Positions 1,401-45,523 of a DNA stretch of 46,468 nucleotides are shown here, piece by piece. The notes beneath the pieces are model-generated. The model ran no database searches. It was not told where the DNA came from and was given only the letters and a program-made list of their open reading frames with translations. Location of the stretch: IMG/VR virus record IMGVR_UViG_2617270998_000006, positions 1-46,468 of that record. One strand, written 5' to 3'. How positions within the stretch are numbered: the stretch's first letter is position 1; every line of letters begins with the position of its first letter. The DNA is from a virus. Taxonomy: Duplodnaviria; Heunggongvirae; Uroviricota; Caudoviricetes. Both the position numbers and the translations under genes were made by a program.

Positions 1401-1424
1401 AATAAAAAAGCTCCCGAAGGAGCT
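1401..1424 (-). terminator. rho-independent terminator downstream of the late structural operon
   Basis: On the minus strand: hairpin AGCTCC-TTCG-GGAGCT followed by a T-run, directly after the stop of the 169-aa gene. Confidence 0.6.
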
Positions 1425-1445
1425 TTAAAATACAAGGGATGACTC

Positions 1446-1955: not shown

Positions 1956-1966
1956 ATAAAATCCTT

Positions 1967-2548: not shown

Positions 2549-2583
2549 TCAAGTTAAAGGCCGGAGTTCTCCGGCCTCCTCCT

Positions 2584-6762: not shown

Positions 6763-6899
6763 GTTACTCTTCCTTAAACACAAGGCACTTGTGTGAATCC
6801 CTTTTCGGAAGAGATTTTATTGAAAGTCACTTGTTGACTTTCTCGCGAAAAGTAATTTTTTAAATTTTTTGTGCGGGGAAGTGGACGGTGAATGCAGGC

Positions 6900-6990
6900 G
6901 TTAAATCGTGGGAATTTCAGTCTGAAATTATCCTAAAAAACACATGCAAATCATAAGGTTAGTAATGAAATTAGTGCGGGACATTTTAGG
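6900..6990. promoter_or_regulatory. parS-like partition site region
   Basis: Located immediately downstream of parB; ATTTCA-type heptamers flanking an AT-rich IHF-like core (TAACCTTATGATTTG on the minus strand), an architecture like P1 parS. Exact box assignment not verified. Confidence 0.4.
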
Positions 6991-7026
6991 AGGGGGAGGG
7001 GCTAACACCACCTCCCACCAGCGGGA

Positions 7027-9200: not shown

Positions 9201-9310
9201 CTCCTTATCATTTCGTATGAGTGAATTGTACGTTTGATTCTGCTACGTGCAACTTTTTTTGATTCGTGCGTCAATTATTGCACGTAAAGAAATGGCGATG
9301 AGGCCATTAG

Positions 9311-9596
9311 ATGTGTGCTGGAGGGATGATGCAGGACCAGAATGTGCGATAGAGGGAAGTCGCATTGAATTATGTGCTGTGGAGGGATCGCTGGTATCAA
9401 ATATGTGTGCTGGAGGGAAAGATAGAAGATTAGATGTGCGCTGGAGGGAAACTTGGATGGTTAGATGTGTGCTGGAGGGAATGTCTTGGCAAACTGCGTG
9501 GCGCAACCCTCCAGCGCACACCAAAAACAGGAAAATGGGCAGGCATTCCCGGCAGCGCACATTTTTCAAATGCAGCTGCCCTCCAGCACACACTTA
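9311..9596. repeat. incA-type iteron array (RepA-binding copy-control locus)
   Basis: About eight or nine copies of the core TGTGTGCTGGAGGGA (some degenerate, the last two in inverted orientation) at roughly 30-bp spacing, between parA and the 3' end of repA. Confidence 0.8.
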
Positions 9597-10454
9597 TTCG
9601 GGAAGTTTCAGCTTTGGATTGCGAGAATGGACGATTACAAAACTTTCCCGGCCTTTCTTCTCAATTGAACAGTCGAGATAGCCGATTGTTTTAAGCTGTT
9701 CTATCGCTTTCTTAATGATACGGTTTTGCTCGCCAACAGCTGACTGCAAAGCCAGGCGCTCACGGATTCGCGCGAACGATAGCGGCAACGGGTTCTGCGG
9801 AAGGCTTTCGATGAAAGTGTAAATGGCTTGTGCAGCTTCTTTCTTCGGAAGGGCACGCAAGGCGTGGTGTTGCAACAGAACGCGATAATCAAGCTGGAAC
9901 AGCTCCCAGAGCTTCGAATCGGCCTCCAGCTCTATCAGATCAAGGTCAGCATCAAAACGCCCGACCTTCAGCAGACCAGTCTGATAGCCGCCTTTAGCAT
10001 CTTTTCCGCGCTTAAAAGCGATACCCTTGTTACGCAAGCGTCCAAGTGATTCATGAATGGTTAAACGCAGTTTCGCATCCAGACGTTTTGAGGGGAAACC
10101 ACAGGCTTTAGCGAACTCCTGAAACGATAACTGGATGGTGTTTGAAGAAAAGCCGTATTTGCTGAACGCGTAGATGACACCGATCCACGTTTTGAAATCA
10201 GTATCCATATCGAGTCGAGGACCAGTGATTTTAATATCATCGTAACCCTCGGCTTTAGCTATCTCCAGCTGGGAAAACGCTTTGGTGGCATCAATCTCTT
10301 TACTTTCTCCTTTGCTCTTTGATGGCTTCGGAACGAATACCCCCAAGCGCATCAACGCCACAGGCTGCACAGTGTTGTTTGAATTAACTGTTAGTTCTTT
10401 TGCCTTACTTTCAATGTCTGCGTAAAGAATATCGGAGATAAATGATTGATTCAT
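9594..10454 (-). CDS. repA: plasmid replication initiator RepA (P1-type)
   Basis: 286-aa ORF flanked by iteron arrays on both sides, the P1 R-replicon architecture. Confidence 0.9.
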   Translation of the reverse strand: MNQSFISDILYADIESKAKELTVNSNNTVQPVALMRLGVFVPKPSKSKGESKEIDATKAFSQLEIAKAEGYDDIKITGPRLDMDTDFKTWIGVIYAFSKYGFSSNTIQLSFQEFAKACGFPSKRLDAKLRLTIHESLGRLRNKGIAFKRGKDAKGGYQTGLLKVGRFDADLDLIELEADSKLWELFQLDYRVLLQHHALRALPKKEAAQAIYTFIESLPQNPLPLSFARIRERLALQSAVGEQNRIIKKAIEQLKTIGYLDCSIEKKGRESFVIVHSRNPKLKLPE

Positions 10455-13339: not shown

Positions 13340-13529
13340 GCACTGGAAAAACATTTCTATTTATAAAGTTTCTTGTGAGGCGGATCTGACCGACTTAGAA
13401 GATAAAAATAAAATGATCCTATTCACGCCATGCGGTAGCCAGGATATGGCCAAGTTCGGTTTTGTATCGCCATTTGGTGATAATTCCGAAGTGATCGCTA
13501 TGCATGGAAATGGCTTTATCCGGACATGA
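13332..13529 (+). CDS. hypothetical small protein (possible N-terminal part of a split nuclease)
   Basis: 65-aa ORF whose stop overlaps the next start in an ATGA arrangement. Confidence 0.3.
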   Translation: MFKHWKNISIYKVSCEADLTDLEDKNKMILFTPCGSQDMAKFGFVSPFGDNSEVIAMHGNGFIRT

Positions 13530-22781: not shown

Positions 22782-23171
22782 ATGGGTTTCCCTTCTCCTG
22801 TGGCGGATTATGTTGAAAACCGAATTTCTCTTGATCAGCAGATAATTAGGCATCCATCAGCAACCTACTTCATGCGGGCAGCTGATAGCCATCACCGTGA
22901 GGGAATATTGCAGGGTGCTTTGCTGGTGGTTGATTCTTCGCTTACTCCAGTTGATGGTTCGCTGCTTGTGTGCGCTATGGAGGGTGAATATCGCATAAAG
23001 AGATACAGGAAGTATCCGCGCCAGCACCTGGAGGATTTAAGCACCGGGAAGAAAGAGGCGTTACCAGTAGATGACGATGGATACACGGGCAGTAATGCTG
23101 TTTTTGGTGTGATCACTCATGTCATCAATGATGCCCGAAGTGGGGAGTTTGATGATTGTCCGGTTATTTAA
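22782..23171 (+). CDS. humD: UmuD'-like SOS mutagenesis protein (P1 HumD)
   Basis: 129-aa LexA/UmuD-type peptidase S24 C-terminal domain lacking the N-terminal cleavable arm (starts MGFPSP..., with the SxxK-type catalytic region). Confidence 0.8.
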   Translation: MGFPSPVADYVENRISLDQQIIRHPSATYFMRAADSHHREGILQGALLVVDSSLTPVDGSLLVCAMEGEYRIKRYRKYPRQHLEDLSTGKKEALPVDDDGYTGSNAVFGVITHVINDARSGEFDDCPVI

Positions 23172-23199
23172 GCTGCAAAGGGCTGGTGCTTTATGCCTG

Positions 23200-23240
23200 T
23201 GAGGTTTATAATTGTGTACACATAACGAGTACACGAGGTG
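23200..23240 (+). promoter_or_regulatory. phd-doc promoter and operator
   Basis: TATAAT at about 23207-23212 followed by palindrome GTGTACAC and a related GAGTACAC site, then GAGGT SD. Confidence 0.5.
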
Positions 23241-23243
23241 TTT

Positions 23244-23465
23244 ATGCAATCCATTAACTTCCGTACCGCGCGCGGCAACCTTTCTGAAGTGCTCAACAAT
23301 GTTGAAGCCGGGGAAGAGGTTGAAATCACCCGCAGAGGCCGTGAGCCAGCAGTAATTGTCAGCAAGGCTACTTTCGAAGCCTACAAAAAAGCGGCGCTGG
23401 ATGCTGAATTTGCATCCCTGTTTGACACCCTGGACTCCACCAACAAGGAACTGGTTAACCGATAA
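23244..23465 (+). CDS. phd: Phd antitoxin
   Basis: [32 protein letters not shown]... recognised as P1 Phd; stop overlaps the doc start. Confidence 0.9.
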
Positions 23466-23845
23466 TGAGGCATATATCACCGGAAGAACTTATTGCGCTT
23501 CATGATGCGAATATAAGCCGCTACGGCGGCCTGCCGGGAATGTCAGATCCGGGTAGGGCAGAGGCCATTATCGGGAGAGTTCAGGCCAGAGTTGCCTACG
23601 AAGATATCACCGACCTTTTCGAAGTCTCCGCCACCTACCTGGTGGCTACAGCGAGAGGGCATATATTCAATGATGCCAATAAGCGTACCGCGCTAAACAG
23701 CGCGCTGCTATTTCTACGCCGTAACGGGGTGCAGGTATTTGATTCACCTGAACTGGCAGACCTTACTGTAGGGGCTGCGACTGGCGAGATATCTGTATCT
23801 TCTGTCGCCGACACGTTACGTAGATTGTATGGTTCTGCGGAGTAG
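23465..23845 (+). CDS. doc: Doc toxin (Fic-fold kinase)
   Basis: 126-aa ORF with the Doc catalytic region [12 protein letters not shown]; recognised as P1 Doc. Confidence 0.9.
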
Positions 23846-23849
23846 ATTA

Positions 23850-24029
23850 ATGGCACGCAAATACAACAAATTGTCCCGTGAAGCGTTAAAGATGCTTCTT
23901 GATGGCGTGAGTCGCCGCGAGGTAAAGCAATACCTGGTTGGTAAGCAAATTGGAGCCAGGACTGCTATTGCTGTGTTATGCCGTCAGGAAATGGTTGTGC
24001 TTAAACAGAGAATGCCGGGCAGCAGATAA
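23850..24029 (+). CDS. hypothetical small protein (post-doc gene)
   Basis: Start moved to internal ATG (MARKYNKLSRE...) preceded by GGAG. Confidence 0.35.
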   Translation: MARKYNKLSREALKMLLDGVSRREVKQYLVGKQIGARTAIAVLCRQEMVVLKQRMPGSR

Positions 24030-24056
24030 AGCCCAATCAGTGATGAAAGGTGTGAT

Positions 24057-25100
24057 GTGAAAGCCGTAATTACTCCCTTTGTACAAAAAGAGCTTGGCGT
24101 CGCCACATTCAAAGTGGATCAGGAAGTCAGAAAGCTGGTGGAGGCTGGCCGTAAATTTATTATGGAGCCGGTGCCGCGTGAGTTAATCGAGCACATGGAC
24201 GACGGCCTCGTTGTTTCCGAGCAAACTATGGCAACAAATGAGGCGTTGCAGCCGTTTTTTAACAGCGATGAACTGTTTCGCCGTATTGGTGGAATTGACG
24301 CGCTGGTGGCGTGGTTGCGCAGGAAAGAGGGGCAATGCCAGGCCGCAGATCGTAGCTGGTGTGACAACCATATTGTCCACGCAGAACGAGACAATAGCGC
24401 GGTGTTGTTGTGCTGGCATCACGATAACCATTACCGGATGCGTGGTTTTAATGAGCTGAAAGAAACGCTGCATAATAATCGCGTTAACTGGATACTGGAT
24501 GTCGCCCGTCAGGAAATGGGGCTTTCAGATGGCCATGATTTAAGTATTCAGGAACTGTGCTGGTGGGCTTTCATGCGCAACATGATGCACCTGATGCCGG
24601 AAGAAGTTTGCCGTATATCAATAAATAAGATGAAAGCCGCAACGCAGGATAGCGGACCTCTGAAAGAGGCGGATATTCGCCCGTATGACGATCGCGCTAC
24701 AGCATATGTTCAGATGATGGAAGAACGCGCCGCGCCGATGCGTGCAAAAGTATGCCCTGTGGATGTTGACTCTGACCCTGGCATGGCGCATTTCAAAATA
24801 CCAAAACTGCAATCGCTAAAATTACCTGAGTACATGGACTTTGTTGCTTCCCGTCCATGCTGTGGGTGTGGAGCGGCGGGAGCTGGCGCTCACATTACGC
24901 CTTATATCGTTCGTCATAGTCGATTATGCGCGCATGACATTTACCCAATTCCTCTGTGCCAGTCATGCCAGCGTGATATTGAGCGTGACCGCGATAATTG
25001 GGAGAAGACGCACGGTAGGCTGGCGATGCATCAACGATTGTTCTTTGATTACGCGCTTGGAGTCGGCGCTATCACAAGTCACTCGTCGAGCGTTATATAA
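24057..25100 (+). CDS. hypothetical Cys-rich protein (post-doc gene)
   Basis: 347-aa ORF with C-terminal Cys cluster (CCGCG...[15 protein letters not shown]); no Walker motifs and no GATC hexamer cluster, so not a pacA or terminase ATPase. Confidence 0.5.
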
Positions 25101-25101
25101 A

Positions 25102-25118
25102 ATTGCTCTAATGTATTG
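25102..25118 (+). promoter_or_regulatory. C1 repressor operator
   Basis: ATTGCTCTAATGTATTG directly after the upstream stop codon. Confidence 0.55.
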
Positions 25119-25188
25119 CTATTTCTTTAATCGAGTGTATTATATTCCACGTTGATTAGTTGACATGGGCTAATCAGTAGGTGACAGG

Positions 25189-25395
25189 ATGTTACTTAAC
25201 TGGCAGGGACGCCACTTCATGGAAATAAATCACTCACGAATAACATCGTACGAGATTGCGGATTACATGATCCGCACTAAATCTCTTCTATCAGCGAAAG
25301 AACTCGCAGCAATTCTTGAAAAGGAATACCCGCATCTGGATGTCGATAAGCGCGATGTTTATCTGCGCTTAACAGTGAGGAATCACCGCTGGTAA
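25189..25395 (+). CDS. hypothetical 68-aa protein, possibly a truncated late-promoter-activator (lpa) homologue
   Basis: Sits where I recall the C1-controlled lpa gene, but looks too short; stop lies 18 nt before the terminase fragment. Confidence 0.3.
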
Positions 25396-25412
25396 CGCCA
25401 GCATTTATCAAA

Positions 25413-26189
25413 ATGAAGCTGGCGGAGTACGGCGGGCGTGATAACCCTATGTACATGATTAAGGTACGCGGACTATTCCCTAAATCACAGGATGGCTTCC
25501 TTCTTGGACGTGATGAGGTTGAACGTGCGACGCGGCGGAAAGTCAAGATTGCCAAAGGATGGGGCTGGCTTGCATGTGTGGACGTTGCTGGTGGTACGGG
25601 ACGGGATAAGTCCGTTATCAATATCATGATGGTGTCCGGCCAGCGAAATAAACGCCGTGTAATCAACTATCGAATGCTGGAATACACAGACGTTACAGAA
25701 ACGCAGCTTGCCGCCAAAATTTTCTCAGAATGTAATCCTGAGCGATTCCCAAATATCACCATAGCGATAGACGGCGATGGCCTGGGTAAAGCAACGGCGG
25801 ATCTGATGTACGAGTATTATGGTATTACCGTACAGCGTATACGCTGGGGTAAAAAGATGCATAGCCGTGAAGATAAGAGCCTGTACTTTGATAAACGTGC
25901 TTATGCCAACGTTCAAGCCGCAGAGGCCGTAAAATCTGGTCGTATGAGACTGGATAAGGGTAATGAAACTATTGAGGAAGCGTCGAAAATCCCTGTAGGG
26001 ATTAACTCCGCAGGTCAATGGAAGGTGATGAGTAAGGAGGATATGAAGAAAAAACTCAACCTGCACTCACCAGACCATTGGGATACATATTGTTTCGCTA
26101 TGCTGGCGGATTATGTTCCCCAGGATGAAGTGCTTAGCGTCGAAGACGAAGCGCAGGTTGATGAAGCTCTGGCATGGCTTAATGAATAA
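25413..26189 (+). pseudogene. terminase large subunit remnant: C-terminal RNase H-like nuclease domain only (truncated pacB-like)
   Basis: Acidic-residue segments typical of terminase nuclease domains ([43 protein letters not shown]); no Walker A/B anywhere in this or neighbouring ORFs; frame closes at an in-frame TAA at 25347. Confidence 0.5.
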
Positions 26190-26213
26190 CTCATTGACCA
26201 TGCCGGATGGAAA

Positions 26214-27065
26214 CTATTGCGCGCTTTCGGGGTTGTCGTTTACTGGCTGCCCCTTCTTAGTTTTACGGCTGCGCGTAACTGATGCGGCTGATTTGACCTT
26301 TTTCTCTTCGCGAGTGATGGCAATTTGTTTTTTTACATTTTCAATATCTGCCAGGCGATATATTTTTGCCTGCGGCCAGCGGTCGCAGATGATCGGTTCT
26401 ATAGAGTCATAAAGGCTAAATTTTGCTTTCTCGAATTCACCGTTGATGATAATTCCATCACGGAGAGTTTCATCGCAGATAAACACACCACATAGCGGCA
26501 CATGGTAACTAACTGATTTACCATCATTGTAGTTAGGGCTACTGGAAATGTAATGGACGCGCAGCATTGTCTCGCTAAAGCCGTGTACGCGCATACGGAA
26601 TTTTTCATCCTCCGGGTACTGCTTCATTAGCTCTTTTGTTGCTTCCAGGTTCTCTATGTATTTCGCACTGTGCTCATTGATCCCTGCGCTTTTCTGGATG
26701 CGAATGTCCTTATCAATCAGATGAATAATGCGGCCAGCGGTCATGTTGACGCTGTTCACAGCTTCTGTCTGATAAGTCGTAACCTTACGCACACCGCGAA
26801 GGATGTTAGGCACTGGATATAAAATAGTCTTTGGGATATTGAGGTCTGGGTACTGTTCCAGTTCCCGCGCCATTAAAGTCCATTTATCAATTTCAGCCTG
26901 AATGCTGTCAGTTTCTTTGAACGGCAGAACGACAACCGGGCGTACAGGACGACCGTCGCTGGCGGCATCAACGTGTTGGGCGCGTGCAACAGCTTTTTTT
27001 AGAAAGAGATCCCTGAAGCTGACGAACTCCTGGTACAGTTGTTCGCCGTAGACATAATTTATCAT
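26214..27065 (-). CDS. c1: C1 repressor of lysogeny
   Basis: 283-aa ORF starting MINYVYGEQLYQEFVSFRDLFLKKAV, recognised as P1 C1; cognate operators nearby. Confidence 0.9.
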   Translation of the reverse strand: MINYVYGEQLYQEFVSFRDLFLKKAVARAQHVDAASDGRPVRPVVVLPFKETDSIQAEIDKWTLMARELEQYPDLNIPKTILYPVPNILRGVRKVTTYQTEAVNSVNMTAGRIIHLIDKDIRIQKSAGINEHSAKYIENLEATKELMKQYPEDEKFRMRVHGFSETMLRVHYISSSPNYNDGKSVSYHVPLCGVFICDETLRDGIIINGEFEKAKFSLYDSIEPIICDRWPQAKIYRLADIENVKKQIAITREEKKVKSAASVTRSRKTKKGQPVNDNPESAQ

Positions 27066-27175
27066 TGATCCTCCTCCAGAATTGACATGGCCAACAACTC
27101 ACAGCGGATTACACTGGGAGTTGTTGGCCACCATTATAGAAGGATCCAACGAAAATAATAGATTTATTAGTGCAT

Positions 27176-27385
27176 TTATTGTGAGTCTGGCTGGTTAGTG
27201 GCCATGAGATATTCGATTGTGTCAGTGAGATCATCCAGGTCGTCTTGGGTGATGCGGTACTCCTGATTGGATATCTTTGAGTAGTGTTCAGCAATGGCGC
27301 GGGCAGCGTCGGTTTCGGCGGGGTCTACAGATAAAGCGTTAGAGCAATGTCTAACGTCGTCGATGGTTGGTGGAATGAAAGCCAT
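27176..27385 (-). CDS. coi: Coi, C1 inactivator
   Basis: 69-aa ORF immediately upstream of c1 on the same strand; matches P1 Coi size and position. Confidence 0.8.
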   Translation of the reverse strand: MAFIPPTIDDVRHCSNALSVDPAETDAARAIAEHYSKISNQEYRITQDDLDDLTDTIEYLMATNQPDSQ

Positions 27386-27624
27386 AATTATGCCTCACTG
27401 TATTGACAACACAGAGCCTGAAGCTCTGACCTACTGTTTCACCCATGATCCATGCTGGGGTAATCTAACAACATTGCGCTGTGTGTAAGATGAGCAATGC
27501 ATAGCTGTAATGCCGTTGTATAAGGTTTCCCTGTTTGCTCATTTCCTTCTGAGCCGCTCTACAACGCTGAAGACACATTAAATAGTGAATCCAAAGTCGT
27601 ATTACGAAACGGCGGCAAAACTAT

Positions 27625-27640
27625 GATTTATTAGAGCAAT
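27625..27640 (-). promoter_or_regulatory. C1 repressor operator
   Basis: Reverse complement reads ATTGCTCTAATAAATC; upstream of coi-c1. Confidence 0.6.
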
Positions 27641-27706
27641 TGTCAAACAACTATGAAAAACAATCCAGTTTTTGGCTGGTGGAGTGGGATTTTTCTCTCA
27701 AAATTT

Positions 27707-27723
27707 ATTGCTCTAATAATTCT
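27707..27723 (+). promoter_or_regulatory. C1 repressor operator
   Basis: ATTGCTCTAATAATTCT; paired with the preceding operator in the coi-c1 control region. Confidence 0.6.
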
Positions 27724-27766
27724 TGATTTTTATGCGCAGCTGGACGTAAACTCCTCTTCAGACCTA

Positions 27767-27800
27767 ATAACTTCGTATAGCATACATTATACGAAGTTAT
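27767..27800. other. loxP site-specific recombination site
   Basis: Exact 34-bp ATAACTTCGTATA-GCATACAT-TATACGAAGTTAT. Confidence 0.95.
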
Positions 27801-28210
27801 CTTAAGGGTTATTGAACATGATCAATTTACCTGTAAATCCATACAGTTCAATACCTTATCAGGTCAAATAGTGATCATTTGATCAAGGTTGCGCTACGTA
27901 AAATCTGCGAAATGTTGGCAGTGTTAGTGCTCCAGATTTCGCGTAGCGCACTTAGCACCACCAATCAATCAGAGGTGAAAAATGGGATATTCAGCTGCTA
28001 AAGTGTCCACTCATATTGAGCTTGAGAAAAACCGTGGTTACTGGCGGGCAAAAGGGTTTGATTGTGATAGTTGTCAACTGTCATTATCGCGCGGTGAAGA
28101 GAAAATAGAACGCACGCGCGGTCGCTGGCGTTTCTATGACGAGAACCATAAACAGGTAAAGGCAGAGCCGATCCTGTACACTTTACTTAAAACCATTATC
28201 TGAGTGTTAA

Positions 28211-30599: not shown

Positions 30600-31241
30600 A
30601 TGGATAAGAAAATATGCGTTGTTTCGATGAGCGTCGGCAAACCGGCGTCAATGACTGCTGCATGGATCAATAACGAGCTGATAATGGCTGAGCGGACCAG
30701 CTACCCTGAACGCCGCCGCGACATGGAACTCCAGCTGCTGCGCGAATTGCGAGAAAAAGAGGAAAAGGGTTTTATCGTGCTGGTGGAAGAGGAAAACAGC
30801 TTTATTACTGGTCGAGTTGGCCAGCGTGTAAGGTTGCGCGATCCCTTCATGAACGGCAGGCCGGTACTAATTGAGGCAATGCAGATTTATAAGGAGCTGG
30901 AACGCCAGAAAGCAATCAAGTTACCGCGCAAGGAATCCGGCAAATACATCCTCCACCAAAGCATCTTCGATTCCGAACACGATAAAAAAGGCGATGAATT
31001 TTTCAACATCAATTGGAGCGAAATAACGACAGAGCATGTTCTGACGTTACTCTGTTGCTTTGCGACGGAATACAACAACGTTGCCAGCGCCGACTACATC
31101 AGGGCAATGGCTTGTGAAGTGGATAGTCGTGATGACTCATCGCTGATAGCGTCATATATAAACATCATCAAGAAAACTCAAATTATGGGATGCGCTAGAG
31201 TTCCTCAAGGAATACTCACCGGAAAGAATAATATTCTATAA
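30600..31241 (+). CDS. hypothetical protein (P1 mat-position gene)
   Basis: Start moved to internal ATG (MDKKICVV...); last plus-strand gene before the variable region. Confidence 0.4.
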   Translation: MDKKICVVSMSVGKPASMTAAWINNELIMAERTSYPERRRDMELQLLRELREKEEKGFIVLVEEENSFITGRVGQRVRLRDPFMNGRPVLIEAMQIYKELERQKAIKLPRKESGKYILHQSIFDSEHDKKGDEFFNINWSEITTEHVLTLLCCFATEYNNVASADYIRAMACEVDSRDDSSLIASYINIIKKTQIMGCARVPQGILTGKNNIL

Positions 31242-31338
31242 CCTACGAAGGTTATTTGTTACTTTCTGCGTAAACCTACAACTAACCTTCCTAAGTTAAG
31301 GAAGGTATTTATCATGAAGTGTAGACATAAGCGTATTA

Positions 31339-32379
31339 TTACATGGGCTTAACCACAACCTTTCCGTATATATCAAGTTTTGAATGTAATACGTTGACGT
31401 GAGACAATTCTTTATTCGAACTAACTTTATCTAAAATTATATTTTTATCTTTTTCAGTCATGTTATACCCTAAGGTAATTTGCTTGAATGCAGAAAAAGG
31501 AATTTTCTTTAAGTTAATTTCATGATAGTCATGAAAAACATCAGGATACTCATTTAATAGGCAGTCATCAATCGATGGAGAGACAATGCTTCCTATTTTT
31601 CTCTCGCAATCAGCCAATGGAAAAATAATTCTACTTTCATTTTCAGGAAGCCACTCTTCACCTTTTGTATAAAGAAGCCTATTAATAAAAAGCTCGCGAA
31701 CTGAATCTCGATTTAAGATCCCATGCAATGTATTATCTTTATTCTTTATATCTATATTCCTCGATGGCGCAGGATAGCCATTAAATCGCACAGCGCCTTT
31801 ATAATAGGTTACAGATGCTCTATCTTCTGGATTATAACTAACATCACACGGCCGATATATTTTGAAAAAATCGTGTGTTTCATCGAAAACTACAGCAAAC
31901 CCCTTTCCTATCGATGCATAATGAGTCCACATGTGTAGATTGCAATCACTTTTTGATAGAGAGAACACACCAAGATGACAGCTTACGGCTTCTACTAAAT
32001 AATCGTTAAGGTACGTTACTATTTCTTGGAGTTTAGATTCATCATATGAATCCATTGAGGTAAAACCTTCATTGATTAACAAGTGTGGAAAATCCTCTCC
32101 GTATCGTTTCCCGCAAGGTTTTAAATAATACTCTAACTCTTGTATAGATGGGACATAAGATGGATCTCGTTGCATTTTCTTAAATTCATTTCTAGCCCAT
32201 GCGTAATCGGCTGGTGAAAATTTATTAAAAAATGGAAGAAGTCGCGACTCACTCGACGGATCATTAAGATACTTTGGTTGCGTTGCTCTAAAGAAACCAT
32301 CCTCCAGACAAGATGTTCTAATGTGCATGCCCGGCCAAGGTTTATCCATATAACTCTCGCCTATATATTTAACTAACAC
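31339..32379 (-). CDS. DUF2971-like protein
   Basis: 346-aa ORF, visibly AT-rich; N-terminal FxxxxPxxxNDPxxE-like segment (FFRATQPKYLNDPSSE) and central VFSLS...HMWTHYASIGKGFAVVFD resembling the DUF2971 signature. Confidence 0.5.
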   Translation of the reverse strand: MLVKYIGESYMDKPWPGMHIRTSCLEDGFFRATQPKYLNDPSSESRLLPFFNKFSPADYAWARNEFKKMQRDPSYVPSIQELEYYLKPCGKRYGEDFPHLLINEGFTSMDSYDESKLQEIVTYLNDYLVEAVSCHLGVFSLSKSDCNLHMWTHYASIGKGFAVVFDETHDFFKIYRPCDVSYNPEDRASVTYYKGAVRFNGYPAPSRNIDIKNKDNTLHGILNRDSVRELFINRLLYTKGEEWLPENESRIIFPLADCERKIGSIVSPSIDDCLLNEYPDVFHDYHEINLKKIPFSAFKQITLGYNMTEKDKNIILDKVSSNKELSHVNVLHSKLDIYGKVVVKPM

Positions 32380-33150: not shown

Positions 33151-34518
33151 TTATGCGTATTGTTGGATGACGGCCAGAACGTCCGCCACGTTGTGTTTTG
33201 TCTCGATAATCCACCAGTTACCCGGGAAATCGCTGTTCTTTGCCTTCGCTGGCAGCCAGCGAGCGCCGAATTTCGCCTTGATTGCGTCTTTCGCACGGAA
33301 AAGAATGCCTTTCATGCCGGACGCCTCCTGAAGCCCAAATACCTCGCCAGCGGCGAATTTTGGTGCGTACATCATCTTCAGGTCGGCGGTGGATACGCGA
33401 TAATTCAGACCAAGAGACTGAGCTATGCTGGTGGCATCACCCTGTATTGATGATAACTCTTCTTGTTTCTCGTTTCTGGCGGCAATTTCTTCCTCCGTGA
33501 TGTTGCCAAGGGCCAGGTTTATCCGATCAGCGTCGGCCTGTTTCTCTTCATCGGTGCGCCCGGCAAGAACCGTGTTAATTCTCTGCAATATCTCCACATG
33601 ATTCTTGCGCATGCTGAGCAATTCCGGCGTAACATCGTTAAGAGCCACCAGCCCAAGGATGGCAAGGTCGGAAAACATTGATACCAGGTTGTAGGTCATG
33701 CGATAGCTGAGTTGGCCATAGGCTGATGGCAACTGCACCGCATCCATTTGATAGGCATCCATAAATTTAGAGCCGTCGTTTACGACATCCGCAATTGCCG
33801 GTGTGATTTTCCCTGTGGTGGCGGCCTCCCTGATTGCTGTTACCCACGATTGAGTCAGCGCGGCGACTGCATGATTCAGATTGGCTTTCCGTTCTGCTGC
33901 AATGCGCGCGCTTGCTGCGTCCATTGCCTGCTTGATCTCGTCTTTATTGCTGTAAATGCCAATGGGACCAAACTGTGTTGTGGTGATCTCATAATCTGAC
34001 GCCCGGAACTCATTGGTACCGAAAATGGCATTGGTGACCTCAAGTTCAGAATCCCCGTTACGAGTAGCCCCCTGACTTGTTTTCTCCGGCATTTTTGCGA
34101 TCGCATCCGCTATTTTCTCCTGAATTGCTTCAGGGGATAGCGTATCTCCGTATGACGCGATTACATCGCTATAATTGGATCCAAACAGTTCAGTCAGGAA
34201 TACTTCTGCCAAACGGACCTGGCGGTTATTCCCTTCCGACATCATACCAAGCACCCATTTAGCAATTGACGACTTCAGCGCGCCGTCACGGCGATCCGGG
34301 TAAACCGCATGCTTCAGTGGGTCCGTATAGGTACCAACAAAATCAATGCTATAGCCTGACTCTGTAGTCTGAACGCCGTATGAGTCAGTGATTTTGATCA
34401 TGCCGCGCTGCTGGAAACGGTAGAAATCGTCACAGGAAATGATGTCGTTAATCCCGGCGATGGAGACGCCACCACTGATTTTCTGCATAACAGCATCTTC
34501 ATCGGGAGTTACATCCAC
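33151..34518 (-). CDS. hypothetical protein (455 aa), downstream partner of an overlapping two-gene operon
   Basis: Start overlaps the upstream gene stop by 10 nt; no catalytic or nucleotide-binding motif recognised. Confidence 0.5.
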   Translation of the reverse strand: MDVTPDEDAVMQKISGGVSIAGINDIISCDDFYRFQQRGMIKITDSYGVQTTESGYSIDFVGTYTDPLKHAVYPDRRDGALKSSIAKWVLGMMSEGNNRQVRLAEVFLTELFGSNYSDVIASYGDTLSPEAIQEKIADAIAKMPEKTSQGATRNGDSELEVTNAIFGTNEFRASDYEITTTQFGPIGIYSNKDEIKQAMDAASARIAAERKANLNHAVAALTQSWVTAIREAATTGKITPAIADVVNDGSKFMDAYQMDAVQLPSAYGQLSYRMTYNLVSMFSDLAILGLVALNDVTPELLSMRKNHVEILQRINTVLAGRTDEEKQADADRINLALGNITEEEIAARNEKQEELSSIQGDATSIAQSLGLNYRVSTADLKMMYAPKFAAGEVFGLQEASGMKGILFRAKDAIKAKFGARWLPAKAKNSDFPGNWWIIETKHNVADVLAVIQQYA

Positions 34519-35300
34519 CTGTTATCCAGCGTCTTCACATCCCAGTTACCCGATTTGGTGCCTTTGAAGGTAAAGATGATCTCCACGTCTGCGCGCTGGC
34601 TGTCGAAGTCCAGCGACTTAATGCGAACGATATCACCGGCACAATCGTAGTATTGGCCTACACGCCATGAGCGATCGCCGATAACAAGGAACTCACTCGC
34701 ATGGTTAACCAGGTCAGGATCAACATCCAGAATGCCTTTATTTATTGCATCCTCCACCAGCGGGCGCAGGCGTTTGATATCCGTCGCGGCCTTCTGAGTA
34801 CGGTTCAATAATTTCTCATAGCGGGAGATGGCTTGAGAGATATTAGCCTTGCGCTGAATGGCGCTTTTCAACGACGCGCGATACTGTGCTAACAACATAC
34901 GGTCTGTGTGATGGACACTCCCCCAGCGGGCCTTCCAGTCTGCGTTATCAGCTGCTTTGGCCATTACCGCCTGTTTGAATTTAGCTACCTCGGCGGTGGT
35001 CTTTTCAAATTCCGCTTTGCTTCGCTCTAATTCAGCGGTAAGTACCTCCACATCCTCACCAGCTGCGTGCTGCGCCTTGATGTAGTTCTGAAGGTCGATA
35101 GTAGCCTGTTCTTTCTGGCGAGCGCGTTGCGCGGCTTTCGCCTTATCCATTTGAACCTGCATCATTGCCAGACGTTCACCGTCATCCTTCGCGGTATACA
35201 TCTGCATTTCGATCATATCATTGGCGTCGGCGTTCTCCATTTCTGACTTATCTGAACGGAGGATATCGGAGATCCTGGGCTTCGTTTGGGAAACGTACAA
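34509..35300 (-). CDS. hypothetical coiled-coil protein (about 263 aa)
   Basis: N-terminal half Lys/Ala/Glu-rich and coiled-coil-like; start uncertain (ORF track uses a TTG that lies inside a 16-bp palindrome; first ATG is 20 codons in). Confidence 0.45.
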   Translation of the reverse strand: MYVSQTKPRISDILRSDKSEMENADANDMIEMQMYTAKDDGERLAMMQVQMDKAKAAQRARQKEQATIDLQNYIKAQHAAGEDVEVLTAELERSKAEFEKTTAEVAKFKQAVMAKAADNADWKARWGSVHHTDRMLLAQYRASLKSAIQRKANISQAISRYEKLLNRTQKAATDIKRLRPLVEDAINKGILDVDPDLVNHASEFLVIGDRSWRVGQYYDCAGDIVRIKSLDFDSQRADVEIIFTFKGTKSGNWDVKTLDNRWM

Positions 35301-35309
35301 TATTGTACG
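35294..35309. promoter_or_regulatory. perfect 16-bp palindrome CGTACAATATTGTACG (candidate operator)
   Basis: Overlaps the 5' end of the coiled-coil gene; the half-site ACGTACAATA recurs at 35478-35487. Confidence 0.3.
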
Positions 35310-35478
35310 GTTGCGCTATTGCGGTAGGGTGTACTCCAACGCTATACGGTCTTTGGCAGACCTTTAGGGAAATGAGATAAGCTAAATGCGATAAGAGAAA
35401 AGCAATAACTTAAAGGCAATAGCTGATTACGATAAATCAATCAGTTACTTATCAGTATCGATTAAAAAATGCTCCTAA

Positions 35479-35925
35479 CGTACAATAATTTCCGTTTCCC
35501 AAACCGCCCCCTCCGATCCCGCGCCGGTCTACCCGCAGACGCATCTGAGTTTTCTGGCAAACGTCTATAACCAGAAGGCGCGTGAGTTCTACCATTGTTA
35601 TGGCGTACAGTTGATCGACGCGGCGTATGAAGCGCATCAAGAAAAGGGCGATGTGCCTGTGATGATCACCAAGCATTGCCTGCGTTTTGCCTTTAATCTT
35701 TGCCCGAAACAGGCGAAAGGTAACATCAAAAGCTGGAAAGCGACGCCAATGCAACTGGTCAACGGTGATGAGGTACTGACGCTGAAATTTGGCTGTCGCC
35801 CGTGTGAAATGCACGTTATCGGCAAGATTAAAGATCACATTCTTAAAATGCCGCTGCCGGGCAGCGTGGTGGGTTCCGTCAGTCCGGAAGATCCGATGAA
35901 AACGCTGCCGAAGCGTAAACCTTAA
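35479..35925 (+). pseudogene. 3' fragment of a chromosomal-type gene (possibly U32-family peptidase-like), 5' end missing
   Basis: Open frame starts abruptly after an in-frame TAA with no plausible start or SD for the first 40 codons; GC-rich, unlike the flanking AT-rich DNA; family guess from the C-terminal sequence only. Confidence 0.4.
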
Positions 35926-36029
35926 TCCTTTGCGACATCAGCCCGGTGGCGTTTACCGGGCCTTTGTGTTGGTATTTATTTCCGCCGGTTAACGCCTGGC
36001 CCAAAGCCGACATCCGGCGAGGTGTCCGC

Positions 36030-36158
36030 TTAATGCGCTTTAAACCCCGCCGCAGTCATGAGCAGGCGAAAAAACATGCCCACCGCCGCCAGCGCCAACA
36101 CGCTGCCGCCCCAAAGGATGACCAGCCACATCAGGCGTTTCCAGAGAGAATGTTGCAT
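36030..36158 (-). CDS. small membrane protein (42 aa), putative oxidase accessory subunit
   Basis: MQHSLWKRLMWLVILWGGSVLALAAVGMFFRLLMTAAGFKAH; ATG overlaps the subunit II stop, as for CydX/AppX-type peptides. Confidence 0.4.
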   Translation of the reverse strand: MQHSLWKRLMWLVILWGGSVLALAAVGMFFRLLMTAAGFKAH

Positions 36159-37168
36159 CAGTGATACCCCTCGCCATGTTGCACTTTGCCGCGAAACACA
36201 TAGTAACTCCAGAAGGTGTACACCAAAATCACCGGAATGATGAGCAGCGCACCGACCAGCATAAACCCCTGACTCTGGGCGGGGGCGGCTGCCTGCCAGA
36301 GGGTAACCGAAGGCGGAATAATGTGCGGCCAGATACTGATGCCCAGGCCGCTGAAACCAAGGAAGATTAGCCCGAGCGTCAGCACAAACGGAAACGTGTG
36401 GTTTTCCGGACGACCCAGTGTGCGCCATAACCAGACGCTGAACGCGATCACCAGCACCGGAACCGGCAGCAGATAGCCCAGGTTGGGAAGCGTAAACCAA
36501 CGGTCGGCGATCGCCGGATGCGCTAACGGTGTCCAGAGGCTGATTATCGCAATTGACAACAGCAGGGCCAGCAGCAGTTTTTTCGCGACGCTGCGCATTT
36601 TATCCTGAAGCGGATTTTCGCTTTTCATCACCAGCCAGGTTGCGCCTAAGAGCGCATAGGCAACGACCAGTCCGACGCCACAGAACAGAGTGAAGGGGGT
36701 TAACCAGTCGAACGGCCCGCCGCTGTAGCTGCGACCGGTCACCGGGAAACCGTTGATCACTGCGCCAACCACGATCCCTTGGGCGAAGGTAGCCAGAATC
36801 GACCCGCCGAGAAAAGCATGGTCCCAAAATGGGCGGTGGGCTGGCGTGGCCTTGAAGCGAAACTCGAAGGCCACGCCGCGAAAAATCAGTCCGATCAGCA
36901 TCAGCGTCAACGGAATGGTCAGCGCATCGATAATAACCGCATAGGCCATCGGGAAAGCCCCAAACAGCCCCGCGCCGCCCAGCACCAGCCAGGTTTCATT
37001 ACCGTCCCACACCGGCGCGACGCTATTGACCATCACATCACGATCCTCTGCGTTTCGTGTGACAGGAAACAGAATGCCAATACCCAAATCGAATCCATCC
37101 ATCACGATATACATTAGCGTGGCGAAAACGATGATCACAAACCAGATAACCGATAAATCAATACCCAT
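36158..37168 (-). CDS. cytochrome bd-type quinol oxidase subunit II (CydB/CioB-like)
   Basis: 336-aa polytopic membrane protein with CydB-like N-terminus (VMDGFDLGIG); start overlaps the subunit I stop. Confidence 0.85.
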   Translation of the reverse strand: MGIDLSVIWFVIIVFATLMYIVMDGFDLGIGILFPVTRNAEDRDVMVNSVAPVWDGNETWLVLGGAGLFGAFPMAYAVIIDALTIPLTLMLIGLIFRGVAFEFRFKATPAHRPFWDHAFLGGSILATFAQGIVVGAVINGFPVTGRSYSGGPFDWLTPFTLFCGVGLVVAYALLGATWLVMKSENPLQDKMRSVAKKLLLALLLSIAIISLWTPLAHPAIADRWFTLPNLGYLLPVPVLVIAFSVWLWRTLGRPENHTFPFVLTLGLIFLGFSGLGISIWPHIIPPSVTLWQAAAPAQSQGFMLVGALLIIPVILVYTFWSYYVFRGKVQHGEGYH

Positions 37169-38568
37169 TAGCGATGTGCCTTATGTTGAGAATCGAGGAC
37201 GGCGGCGGAAAGCGGCCTGGCGGGTGTGCCCGGCGGCGGCGCGGAATCATCTTCCAGCGGGCCTTTGCGGATCAGGCGAATCATATAGCTGTAGCCGACG
37301 CCAAAGACTGAGCTGTAGACAACAAAGAAAGCGAGCAACGAAATGCTCATATGTAAATCGCCGTGGGCCGACACCGCGTCGGCAGTACGCTGTAAACCGT
37401 ACACCACCCACGGCTGGCGTCCGACCTCAGTGGTCACCCAGCCCGCGAGAATGGCGATGAGCCCCGAGGGTCCCATCCATAGCGCAAAGCGCAGGAACGG
37501 GCGCGAGGTGTAGAGGCGCTGCCTGTAGCGCAGCCAGAGCGCACAGAGCCCTAGCAGGATCATTAACATGCCCAGGCCGGCCATGATGCGAAACGACCAG
37601 AACACGATCGTCGAGTGAGGGCGATCCTCTTTGGCGAATTCTTTTAGCGCCGGAACCTGTTTATCCAGACTGTGCGTCAGGATCAGGCTTCCCAGCGCCG
37701 GGATCGCCAGTCCATAGCGGGTGCGTTCCTGTTCCATATCCGGCCAGCCAAACAGCAGCAGCGGCGTGGGCTCACCCGGCGGGTTTTCCCAGTGACCTTC
37801 AATCGCGGCGATTTTGGCTGGCTGATGTTTCAGGGTGTTCAGCCCATGCATATCGCCGATTAACGCCTGCACCGGCGCGACAATAAGCGTCATCCACAAC
37901 GCCATGGAAAACATCGTGCGAATGGCTGGCGTTGCGTTGCCGCGCAGCAGATGCCAGGCTGCCGAAGCGCCGACAAACAGCGCGCTACTGAGAAATGCGG
38001 CGACGGACATATGCAGCAGCCGATAAGGGAACGAAGGATTGAAGATAACGGCGAACCAGTCCACGGGCACAACCTGGCCGTTGACGATCTCAAACCCCTG
38101 CGGCGTTTGCATCCAACTGTTAGACGCCAGGATCCAGAAGGTGGAAATGAGGGTGCCAAGCGCCACCATGCAGGTTGAGAAGAAATGCAAACCCGGACCG
38201 ACTTTATTCCAGCCAAACAGCATCACCCCGAGGAATCCGGCTTCAAGGAAGAAAGCGGTCAGCACCTCATAGGTAAGCAACGGCCCGGTAATACTGCCTG
38301 CGAATTCCGAAAAACCGCTCCAGTTGGTGCCGAACTGATAGGCCATCACCAGACCGGAAACCACGCCCATGCCGAAATTTACGGCGAATATTTTTGACCA
38401 GAAGTGGTACAACGAGCGCCAGACCGGATTTTTGCTTTTTAGCCAAAGGCCTTCCAGCACCGCCAGATAACTGGCAAGCCCAATGGTGATCGCCGGAAAG
38501 ATAATGTGAAATGAAACTGTAAAGGCGAACTGGATCCTTGCCAGGTGATACGCATCAAGACCAAACAT
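37168..38568 (-). CDS. cytochrome bd-type quinol oxidase subunit I (short Q-loop, CioA-like)
   Basis: 466-aa membrane protein with CydA-like N-terminus (RIQFAFTVSFHIIFP); about 50 residues shorter than E. coli CydA/AppC, suggesting the short Q-loop subtype. Confidence 0.85.
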   Translation of the reverse strand: MFGLDAYHLARIQFAFTVSFHIIFPAITIGLASYLAVLEGLWLKSKNPVWRSLYHFWSKIFAVNFGMGVVSGLVMAYQFGTNWSGFSEFAGSITGPLLTYEVLTAFFLEAGFLGVMLFGWNKVGPGLHFFSTCMVALGTLISTFWILASNSWMQTPQGFEIVNGQVVPVDWFAVIFNPSFPYRLLHMSVAAFLSSALFVGASAAWHLLRGNATPAIRTMFSMALWMTLIVAPVQALIGDMHGLNTLKHQPAKIAAIEGHWENPPGEPTPLLLFGWPDMEQERTRYGLAIPALGSLILTHSLDKQVPALKEFAKEDRPHSTIVFWSFRIMAGLGMLMILLGLCALWLRYRQRLYTSRPFLRFALWMGPSGLIAILAGWVTTEVGRQPWVVYGLQRTADAVSAHGDLHMSISLLAFFVVYSSVFGVGYSYMIRLIRKGPLEDDSAPPPGTPARPLSAAVLDSQHKAHR

Positions 38569-38691
38569 GCCTGACTCCGCATTAAAAATTGATTCAGCGC
38601 AATTCTAAGCGTGTGAGGCAATGAGGGGCAGAAACAGAACAGACATATTTAACCATAACAGTTTGCAAATCGTTGTGAATTTTATTCACTG

Positions 38692-39150
38692 TTATACACT
38701 GCGAGGCTCACCTGCATTGACCGACGAGAAACCAGAATAAAAAATACCAGCGTCTGGCTGAACAACTTTGCGAACAGATCGCCTCTGGCGTCTGGCGACC
38801 CGGCGACGCGCGGCCTCTTTGCGGTGGGAGTCGGAGTCCATTGCGCTGGCTACGCGCCCGGCAGCAACGAAGTCATAAAGCATATCCTGTGCATGCTCAT
38901 CTACGGTGTCATCACGTAGCGGAATGCGGGCGTATTGTTCTTTGGTAAACACGACTGCACGGTAATTTGAGTGCGGGATTGCATTCATACGTGCCGTGAT
39001 AGTGGCTTCATCTGCCAGTTTAAGGGCATCGCGCATAACTGGAGTGCCATCAGTACCAAGAACAGGAGCACCTCCCACGCTAACGCGCGGGCCCCGAATC
39101 TCACCGTTCTGAAACCACAACAAAAAAACATCAGGAATAAAAAACACCAC
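38692..39150 (-). CDS. hypothetical protein, possibly a gene fragment
   Basis: 152-aa GC-rich ORF upstream of the oxidase operon; no motif recognised; may be a spurious frame in GC-rich DNA. Confidence 0.2.
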   Translation of the reverse strand: MVFFIPDVFLLWFQNGEIRGPRVSVGGAPVLGTDGTPVMRDALKLADEATITARMNAIPHSNYRAVVFTKEQYARIPLRDDTVDEHAQDMLYDFVAAGRVASAMDSDSHRKEAARRRVARRQRRSVRKVVQPDAGIFYSGFSSVNAGEPRSV

Positions 39151-39648
39151 ACAAACACAGCACTGTACCCCCCCTCATAACTGAAAAGCGCCGCCGCCCC
39201 CGCCCGAAGGGCGGGAACAACATCGCTTTTAATTATGAATGTTGTAAGTACATTGTCATCGCTGTCAGTCTTCTGGCTGGAAGTCCTCAGTACACGCTCG
39301 TAAGCGGCCCTCACGGCCCGCTAACGCGGAGATACGCCCCAACTTCGGGTAAACCCTCGTCGGGACCACTCCGACCGCGCACAAAGGCTCTGTCATGGCT
39401 GAAAACGGGTATGGCTTAGCAGGGCCGGGGGTGGGTAAGGTGAAATCTATCAGTCAGTACCGGCTTACGCCGGGCTTCGGCGGTTTTACTCCGGTATCAT
39501 ATGAAACAACAGAGTGCCGCCTTCCATGCCGCTGGCGCGGCATCAGGACAACTGAAGAGTGACGGCGCACATTAACATCAAACAGACTTGTTAAGCAGTC
39601 TTTCAGGGTGTAATCTGAAGACCTGTTAAATAGTCTCAGAGGTGTGTT

Positions 39649-39900
39649 ATGCCCAGTATCATTTTGTCTGACACCAGTGCAAGCGTCAGTGAGCTGAAAA
39701 AAAATCCGATGGCAACTGTCAGTGCCGGAGAGGGGTATCCTGTTGCCATTCTTAACCGGAATCAGCCAGCATTCTACTGTGTCCCTGCTGAGCTCTATGA
39801 AAGAATGCTTGATGCCTTGGATGACCAAGAGCTGGTAAAACTGGTTACTGAACGCAGCAGTCAGCCTCTGCATGATGTGGACCTGGACAGTTATTTATGA
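39649..39900 (+). CDS. RelB/StbD-family antitoxin (Phd/YefM fold)
   Basis: 83-aa ORF (MPSIILSDTSASVSELKKNPMATV...) resembling the plasmid StbD/RelB antitoxin; stop overlaps the toxin start. Confidence 0.75.
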   Translation: MPSIILSDTSASVSELKKNPMATVSAGEGYPVAILNRNQPAFYCVPAELYERMLDALDDQELVKLVTERSSQPLHDVDLDSYL

Positions 39901-40184
39901 CTTATACAGTAAAATTCCGGGATGATGCACTGAAAGAATGGCTCAGACTGGACAAGACCATTCAGCAGCAGTTCGCAAAAAAACTGAAAAAATGCAGTGA
40001 AAATCCTCATATAGCTTCTGCAAAACTACGTGGATTAAAGGACTGCTATAAAATCAAACTTCGCGCATCAGGTTTTCGTCTGGTTTATCAGGTTATTGAT
40101 GATATGTTAATTATTGCGGTCGTCGCAGTAGGTAAACGTGAACGCAGCAACGTTTATCATCTCGCCAGTGAACGGATGAAATAA
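39897..40184 (+). CDS. RelE/StbE-family toxin (ParE/RelE superfamily)
   Basis: 95-aa ORF (MTYTVKFRDDALKEWLRLDKTIQQQFAKKL ... FRLVYQVIDDMLIIAVVAVGKR) with typical RelE-family organisation. Confidence 0.75.
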   Translation: MTYTVKFRDDALKEWLRLDKTIQQQFAKKLKKCSENPHIASAKLRGLKDCYKIKLRASGFRLVYQVIDDMLIIAVVAVGKRERSNVYHLASERMK

Positions 40185-41043
40185 TATCCTGGTCAGCACT
40201 CTTTCTTACCTGCTTCCATTTTTTCAGTGATTCTTTTCCTGCATGCAGAAAAAAAGCCTACCCTGTGGGCAGGCATAACAGACAATCGCACAGTCAGTGT
40301 TGAAATTAATGATGTCACGCATTATACCCGGTGGATACACAAACCATCCCTGCAAATGCACTGGCATCCTAATCAACGTCTGAAACAACTGCAATGGCCG
40401 GACCTGTGATTTCAGAGAAAGTTATTATGTTTATTGAATATAACCGAAGTGATAAATAAAAGTATTATCACCTTTAATATTTATGCTTATTGCGTGGTTT
40501 TATCTGGTTATATAAAGCACAGATGTTCTTATTATTTTCTGAAAAATAACCATATGGATCGATTTCCCCCACCCAGCCGAAGCGGTTCGGCTCGTTCGGC
40601 GTGTCGTCGACACTGAAGCGCTTATCCACTTCGTTCCAGCGGTAAGAGTTGTCGCTGTCGCTGACGAATGCCATCGGGTCGCTAAACAGCGTGATCCGCC
40701 ATGCGATCAAAAAGCGTAAGTGTTTCCGACAGACGAGCCGGTGAAAAAAGTGGTGTGTCTGGCAATACAGGCATCGTCCCCGAAATGGACGATGCCGTTG
40801 AAGGACTGGGGTATGGCAATAAGCCGCTTTATTATCGGATTCAGTGACCGCCTGGACGGTTACTTTTGAGAAAAGGCATTTACACACAATCCTAAACAGA
40901 CTCCTATATTTCAGATTTTGTTATCAACGCATTTCAAATCTCTTAGAAATCATTACTGTCGTCATATTTTCCGAGGCAGCTCACCACCTAACCATGTCTT
41001 ATCAACAATATTTTGTGAAGGATATTTATAATGTAAAGACACA

Positions 41044-44541: not shown

Positions 44542-44787
44542 ACTGTTTTTTCTTTAGTGATGCATTTTTTATCAACCACACAAGCACATTATTTCATTGA
44601 TACTAATCACATCAGGATGAATGTTTTTTCTCAATAGAAATAAGTGTCTTTATTCCTTACCAATTTATTCTGGTTATTCCTCTTATCCAGACGTCTCGTG
44701 ATACTCCCTGTATTTATTATAGAGTATATATATGTACTGCGTTTAAATCATGAAGACGACAACCTGTTTTACATAAATTATTCCTAA

Positions 44788-45461
<674 letters not shown>

Positions 45462-45523
45462 TCTTACCCAGCAATAGTGGACACGCGGCTAAGTGAGTAA
45501 ACTCTCAGTCAGAGGTGACTCAC

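Follow-up and report, generated by a model that had tools for sequence, protein, structure and literature searches.

The closest described relatives of the element studied here are the phage-plasmids P1 (NC_005856) and Salmonella phage SJ46 (NC_031129), both of the genus Punavirus, in which the genes around the packaging module follow the order humD-phd-doc-pdcA-pdcB-lpa-pacA-pacB-c1-coi-cra-cre. Without Lpa the late promoters of P1 are inactive, without PacA and pac no packaging series starts, and without the PacB ATPase DNA is not translocated. The pac site of P1 comprises seven TGATCR hexamers in 170 bp and lies inside pacA. Classical P1 mutants in gene 9 (pacA) and gene 10 (lpa) carry point or amber mutations in a phage that is otherwise complete. 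Plasmid pJIE250-3 and other P1 derivatives without lytic functions have been described (Venturini et al., 2019; PMC6906374). In P1-derived plasmids, key phage functions are depleted, a full phage cycle is impossible, and mobilisation functions and resistance genes are often gained (Pfeifer and Rocha, 2024; PMC10879196).

A stretch of DNA of 46,468 nucleotides (hereafter the window) was analysed and compared with these systems. It is very probably the phage-derived core of a plasmid that descends from a P1-like phage-plasmid, closest to SJ46 and P1, through a 2,216-bp deletion between short repeats together with other losses, and that persists as a plasmid. A preliminary description of this DNA had proposed that the packaging module between pdcB and c1 is deleted.

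The pdcB-c1 interval and its deletion junction

The pdcB-c1 interval spans 1,113 bp (window 25101-26213) versus about 3.33 kb in P1 and SJ46, in line with the 1.1 and 3 kb first estimated, and contains two ORFs, one of 68 aa at 25189-25395 (+) and one of 258 aa at 25413-26189 (+). The features of this region are as follows.

24057-25100, + strand: pdcB (DUF968/HNH, 347 aa), intact, left flank; from the ORF, collinear with pdcB of P1 and SJ46
25102-25118, + strand: C1 operator Olpa; NC_005856 annotation transferred by alignment
25116-25143, + strand: sigma-70 promoter Plpa; NC_005856 annotation transferred by alignment
25189-25395, + strand: truncated lpa (68-aa ORF); from tblastn and Pfam
25347-25371, no strand: imperfect hairpin within lpa (TAAGCGCGAT-GTTT-ATC.TGCGCTTA); predicted fold of -8.1 kcal/mol with DNA parameters
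25366-25372, no strand: deletion junction, retained CGCTTAA; from the overlap of two BLAST pieces and from parent and product sequences
25368-26189, + strand: pacB remnant, codons 222-494, the C-terminal nuclease part of the large terminase; from tblastn and PHROG
26214-27065, - strand: c1 repressor, 283 aa, intact, right flank; from the ORF and annotations

A megablast search with window 23000-28000 against phage genomes retrieved P1, P7, SJ46 and relatives at 96-98% nucleotide identity. Every phage match was split in two, and the 5.0-kb query corresponded to approximately 7.2 kb in the phages. Window 23000-25372 aligns to positions 1001-3373 of the SJ46 locus (L001) and window 25366-28000 to positions 5583-8225, so that the alignment to SJ46 and P1, collinear at 96-99% identity, has a single gap and its two pieces overlap by 7 bp. 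The deleted stretch measures 2,216 bp in SJ46 (L001 3374-5589) and 2,215 bp in P1 (NC_005856, 90175-92389). The deletion is clean: its endpoints lie in two copies of CGCTTAA, a 7-bp direct repeat, and a single copy survives at window 25366-25372. Both intact parent genes already contain this repeat, one copy in lpa (around the break, ...CTGCGCTTAAAGGC) and one in pacB (...TCACGCTTAACAGTG), and the window reads ...CTGCGCTTAACAGTG across the junction, where neither an IS nor any foreign base was found.

The deletion removed lpa codons 62-150 (the last 89 codons), the late promoter LPpac, the whole of pacA and pacB codons 1-221; the pac cleavage sites and the IHF site, annotated within pacA in NC_005856, are gone with pacA. 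Both Olpa and Plpa are kept, and sequence comparison revealed one mismatch to P1.

Of 5,426 complete E. coli genomes, one contains the junction at 100% identity, on the circular, independently assembled plasmid pSW071614_contig_3 (NZ_JBRNHF010000003.1; 109,073 bp; wastewater, Galapagos). The whole window matches this plasmid at 99.9% identity, the single difference being that the plasmid carries an IS26/TnAs1 tet(A) insert of 11.5 kb. In a large protein collection, 227 contigs carry the exact 68-aa product that crosses the junction and 201 carry the exact 258-aa product, and the same junction was identified in sampled Logan, NCBI and ENA contigs. An exact-junction scan gave zero matches in IMG/VR viral contigs and zero in JGI metagenome contigs, and no PLSDB record has the exact junction. 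There is next to no chance that the junction comes from a collapsed or chimeric assembly of a true molecule with intact lpa-pacA-pacB. The window is probably a draft contig with one end inside an IS3 copy, yet no support for such an artefact was found, and the identical junction in the circular plasmid and in the Logan, NCBI and ENA contigs, together with the ORF across it on 227 contigs, rules the artefact out.

Remnants of lpa and pacB and recurrent breaks in lpa

The 68-aa ORF, which the preliminary description had left unrecognised, consists of Lpa codons 1-61 (25189-25371) followed by seven out-of-frame codons from pacB and a stop. A tblastn search of the window found Lpa residues 1-61 only, at 100% identity, out of the 150 aa of full-length Lpa, and the ORF matches Pfam family PF25716 (BPP1_LPA) over profile positions 1-48 of 131 (E 8e-21). 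In pSW071614, lpa is annotated as a pseudogene by PGAP. Because this ORF is a truncated late-promoter activator, late transcription would be gone besides packaging.

For PacB, tblastn found residues 222-494 only in the window, at 94% identity. The longest ORF in this remnant begins at an internal ATG at 25413 and encodes 258 aa; inspection of the sequence upstream of this ATG revealed no evident ribosome-binding site. Both the P-loop GHGTGKS (approximately residues 56-62) and the Walker B motif LYIIDE (158-163) of PacB fall inside the deleted part, which leaves the N-terminal ATPase of TerL without P-loop or Walker B in a remnant that begins at residue 222. The C-terminal nuclease domain is kept, judged by the homology to PacB 222-494 and by the match of the 258-aa ORF to PHROG phrog_2 ('terminase large subunit'), which covers C-terminal profile positions 439-598 only (E 2.9e-13). 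Pfam gave no family for the 258-aa ORF and none for full-length PacB either, and the sole match in a PDB sequence search was a terminase (8dkr_B) at a non-significant E of 0.25; the nuclease-domain assignment therefore rests on PacB homology and the PHROG profile. Since PacB of P1 and of SJ46 is 494 aa in length with ATPase motifs present, short terminases are not the norm in this group.

PacA had no tblastn match anywhere in the window, and the densest cluster of pac-like hexamers anywhere in the window contains three TGATCR per 170 bp versus seven in P1. A second terminase was found neither in the window, which covers 46 kb of its own replicon, nor in the 99.9%-identical complete plasmid pSW071614_contig_3. 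The earlier claims of a deleted packaging module, of a missing TGATCA/G cluster and of a 258-aa terminase nuclease part without Walker motifs are thus borne out. We propose that the two leftover ORFs are wreckage rather than new genes, as part of the explanation that we hold very probable as a whole, and their correct labels are lpa remnant and pacB remnant.

A sister junction (GATGTCGA followed by TAACGCC), 46 bp shorter than that of the window, is present in 24 of 5,426 complete E. coli genomes, and its junction ORF occurs on 806 contigs. The sister plasmids, of which pEC974-2 was examined over its full length, have only about 75 nt of pacB left, followed by a KilAC antirepressor fragment and then c1. 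The two breaks in lpa coincide with the feet of the hairpin at window 25347-25371 (TAAGCGCGATGTTTATCTGCGCTTA), the window type with the 3' foot and the pEC974-2 type, 25 bp upstream, with the 5' foot. At least eight distinct truncated Lpa products have an Lpa part that ends exactly at codon 61 (...DVYLRL), and their tails are all different.

P0016 (window type): tail TVRNHRW, from pacB codon 222; 227 contigs
P0017: tail PDTVDASING, from the KilAC 3' end; 1 contig
P0019: tail WNR, unmapped; 28 contigs
P0020: tail RTKA, unmapped; 14 contigs
P0021: tail YGDDD, from the end of PacA; 6 contigs
P0028: tail PQFILN..., from an ant/icd-like gene; 62 contigs
P0029: immediate stop, unmapped; 53 contigs
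P0030: tail from pacB, out of frame, at window 25957, some 590 nt deeper into the gene; 42 contigs

These alleles were drawn from the 90%-identity protein cluster of the 68-aa product, which favours breaks near codon 61; two codon-61 junctions were checked at the DNA level, and most alleles stand at the protein level only. The P0017 type was seen in the DNA of pCRST035_1 with 2 bp of microhomology, and the junctions examined in DNA, other than that of the window, have 2-3 bp. A synthetic query joining lpa codon 61 to pacB (window 25957) retrieved no PLSDB record, and P0030 is known at the protein level only. A corresponding query joining lpa codon 61 to the end of pacA instead retrieved another deletion, from mid-lpa (SJ46 locus 3422) into pacA (4521), which is present in three complete genomes.

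Several further lesions were observed in this region. In NZ_CP061751 (L018, 1428-2029), a fusion joins mid-lpa to pacA (3422 to 4521) and pacB contains an IS3, and in pWL164-2 (NZ_CP128644; L017, 3958-5431), pacA is joined to a KilAC antirepressor fragment as an independent lesion. The draft assembly GCA_049858865.1 (L014, 2983-3001), which has the same 258-aa ORF, carries a deletion that starts at the stop codon of pdcA and ends at the TAA of window 25393-25395. This deletion (window-equivalent 24029-25395) takes pdcB and the lpa remnant, and its right end is also the right end of the 46-bp deletion in pEC974-2.

This part of lpa is present in 641 complete-genome records, and 34 of them have a break no more than 60 bp from the hairpin. 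At the level of sequence comparison, the lesions listed above show that the lpa-pac interval has been struck repeatedly and independently. The hairpin could be a mutational hot spot and a preferred break on the route from phage-plasmid to plain plasmid, with loss of the late activator and the packaging genes; we offer this tentatively and rate it as possible, because the cluster view is biased to codon 61 and most alleles are at the protein level only. If true, it would provide a small mechanistic handle on the start of the conversion of phage-plasmids into plasmids. A comparison by eye with lox, cix and dif/XerC sites gave no convincing match for this part of lpa.

P1 genes kept and lost

Gene-by-gene mapping, with P1 isolate OP279344 as the reference, revealed only about 28 kb of P1 DNA in the window, at 94-98% identity, and the same 28 kb is present in the complete plasmid pSW071614_contig_3. 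By gene coverage, approximately 30 genes are complete. The kept genes include cra, cre, c8, ref, mat (79%), lxc, ulx, darB (35%), bplB, pmgG, 21, 22, 23, parB, parA and repA. Also kept are upfA, ppfA, upfB, uhr, hrdC (21%), pmgM (44%), pmgN, pmgP, ppp, pmgQ, pmgR and pmgS, as well as phd, doc, pdcA, pdcB, lpa (41%), pacB (55%), c1 and coi. Moreover, humD and an lxr-like ORF upstream of humD are present, both un-annotated in OP279344. RepA, ParA/ParB, Phd-Doc and Cre-lox are covered over 100% of gene length at about 97% identity to P1, and PGAP annotates the maintenance genes of the 99.9%-identical plasmid as intact. The same annotation gives ulx an internal stop. At window 30684-32349, mat is covered to 79% in comparison with P1, and a DUF2971 gene stands in place of P1 res and mod. 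The following features outside the lpa-pacB region mark the P1-derived part and its edges.

174-1404, - strand: IS421, with P1 DNA ending just past bplB (P1 coordinate 48849 in OP279344); one edge of the ~40-kb loss
7027-10454, - strand: parB, parA and repA maintenance module, all intact; from P1 mapping
13516-13521, no strand: second clean deletion, of about 14.5 kb, at the 6-bp repeat TTATCC; from P1 mapping
27176-27385: coi, immunity region with c1; from P1 mapping and annotation
33151-35275, - strand: darB remnant, 35% of the gene, frameshifted, other edge of the ~40-kb loss; from P1 mapping

The only surviving morphogenesis or lysis genes of P1 are bplB, pmgG, 21, 22, 23 and a few pmg genes. 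In both the window and the complete relative, coverage is 0% for prt, pro, lyz, lydABC, S, U, R, 16, bplA, sit and tub and for 5, 6, 7, 24, 25, 26, repL and kilA. Further P1 genes that are missing comprise ssb, the dar/ddr genes, cin, pmgA, pmgB, pmgC, sim, icd/ant, rlf, pmgF, dmt, the tRNAs, tci, ban, dbn, pmgL and pacA. The window lacks portal, protease, lysis, tail, baseplate, lytic-replicon, ant and dmt-to-gene-26 genes as well as the second immunity region (c4/icd/ant).

Besides the lpa-pacB deletion, about 55 kb more of P1 is gone through the 14.5-kb deletion and the ~40-kb loss. About two thirds of the phage genome was already missing from the element. The 14.5-kb deletion reaches from about codon 64 of hrdC to mid-pmgM and takes dmt, the tRNAs, tciABC, ban, dbn, 5, 6, 24, 7, 25 and 26; among the 5,426 complete E. 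coli genomes, its junction occurs in pSW071614 only. The ~40-kb loss spans darB to pmgF. This mapping places the lpa-pacB deletion among three or more large losses, rather than as a single lesion that locked the element into plasmid life. The preliminary description had envisaged an element that cannot package and now lives as a plasmid while keeping structural, immunity and maintenance genes. Loss of packaging agrees with the deletion and the lack of any other terminase in the window and the complete relative, and the immunity and maintenance genes (c1, coi, RepA, ParAB) are indeed kept, but most structural genes are absent. Because only about 28 kb of P1 is there, the element is not a phage minus packaging but a plasmid built around a P1 remnant.

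The non-P1 cargo extends from window 35276 to the end, directly after the darB remnant. Within 35276-46468, it comprises a collagenase-like fragment, cytochrome bd genes, a RelE/Phd toxin-antitoxin pair, an autotransporter gene of 3.5 kb, a piece of ISKpn26 and a copy of IS3. The window end cuts through this IS3, which suggests a draft contig that stops in a repeat. The rest of pSW071614_contig_3 carries IS elements, bcs, dms and cyd genes, an autotransporter, relE/phd, mobI(A/C), a TraI-domain gene and trhR/trhH remnants. No mobilisation functions or resistance genes were identified inside the window, whereas the complete relative has mobI(A/C), the TraI-domain gene and the tet(A) transposon. 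The 11.5-kb insert of pSW071614 lies at a CAATAA site and is flanked by a short target duplication; in the window, CAATAA at 30668-30673 between ref and mat is an empty target site, and the window thus represents the pre-insertion state.

Origin of the deletion and alternative readings

In the reading that we prefer, one illegitimate-recombination event between the CGCTTAA repeats in lpa and pacB would have taken out the 2,216 bp. We regard replication slippage, or template switching, from the 3' foot of the hairpin to microhomology downstream as the likely mechanism, with the 7-bp repeat and the hairpin as circumstantial evidence. Survival of the product may have been favoured because the late (lytic) functions were disarmed, and the element would live on purely as a plasmid with P1 RepA/ParAB, Phd-Doc, Cre-lox, the C1/Coi immunity region and non-phage cargo. 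Alternatively, a mobile element or a site-specific enzyme could have acted at lpa codon 61, for example by IS insertion, adjacent deletion and loss of the IS. Many different junctions share the same left end, and the allele with a stop right after codon 61 occurs only on contigs of at most 5.2 kb, as expected if a repeat (IS) follows. Nevertheless, this origin is unlikely for the window, whose junction has no IS and no foreign base and whose 7-bp repeat pre-exists in both intact parents, and the other junctions checked in DNA have 2-3 bp of microhomology.

By analogy with P1 genetics, we infer that the element cannot package, cannot activate late promoters and cannot cut pac or translocate DNA, defects of lpa and pac that would be redundant because of the other P1 gene losses. 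A co-resident helper phage is conceivable, and without pac only packaging of the generalised-transduction type would be possible. The intact c1, coi, cre, phd/doc, repA/parAB and genes 21-23 would fit an otherwise intact phage-plasmid that lost only packaging, from which particles or lysis might be possible and which pacAB in trans could rescue; this is extremely improbable, since most morphogenesis, lysis and lytic-replication genes are gone, lpa is cut and the missing genes are nowhere on the complete relative plasmid. Nor is it at all likely, if slightly less remote, that the C-terminal part of PacB has been retained, perhaps together with the C1 region, as a dominant-negative piece of terminase that defends against incoming P1-like phages by interfering with their packaging. 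Its ORF is uninterrupted and lies downstream of the C1-controlled promoter Plpa, and 201 contigs encode the identical protein. However, the sister lineage has just ~75 nt of pacB and is more widespread (24 of 5,426 genomes; 806 contigs), no ribosome-binding site is evident ahead of the internal ATG, and an identity of 98.9% to SJ46 leaves too little time for constraint to be read from the intact frame. Deletion by recombination between repeats, followed by persistence as a plasmid, remains the reading that we consider very probable.

Relation to P1-derived plasmids

Compared with P1 and SJ46, the window shares the repA/parAB replicon, genes 21-23 and the gene order, lacks lpa codons 62-150, LPpac, pacA with pac, pacB codons 1-221 and about 55 kb of further genes, and adds IS421 and non-phage cargo. 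The gene 9 and gene 10 mutants of P1 lost the same functions, namely pac cleavage and late-promoter activation, whereas the window is a natural multi-gene deletion in an already decayed element.

Resemblance was also found to the sister plasmids. The window and pEC974-2 have an identical IS421/bplB boundary, a cut lpa that directly abuts a pacB remnant, and P1 remnants comparable in size (about 28 kb and about 23.5 kb, respectively). Of its cargo, pEC974-2 has the autotransporter and relE/phd in common with the window and hokD, bcs and mobI/trhR remnants in common with pSW071614. Because the boundary is identical and much of the cargo is common, pEC974-2 can be placed in the same decayed lineage. 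Different from the window, the pEC974-2 type has a RepB/Par replicon, more IS1 and IS26 copies, more of darB, and KilAC in most of the pacB remnant's place. The junction of the window looks like either an older state than the pEC974-2 type or one of independent origin.

Supplementary Dataset S7 of Pfeifer and Rocha (2024; PMC10879196) lists six of the sister plasmids under 'Plasmid', as P1-derived. Like that class, the window encodes many close P1 homologues, including phd/doc and cre, and is depleted in key phage functions. Elements of this kind, and the lineage that the window shares with its sisters, are already known from that dataset and from the P1 derivatives reported by Venturini et al. 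(2019; PMC6906374), and by its gene content the window is an ordinary further member of a published class. The replicon is best typed as a P1-derived plasmid and not as a phage-plasmid, which bears on predictions of spread: its cargo, including tet(A) in the complete relative, would not be predicted to spread by P1 infection. Significance beyond correct annotation is little. This particular lpa-pacB junction seems undescribed in the literature and is absent from Venturini et al. (2019; PMC6906374), where pJIE250-3 and the other derivatives have other deletions. Like the window, these are P1 backbones living as plasmids after deletions of phage modules, often with IS involved, and the exact junctions reported here are added to the published picture of phage-plasmids decaying into plasmids.
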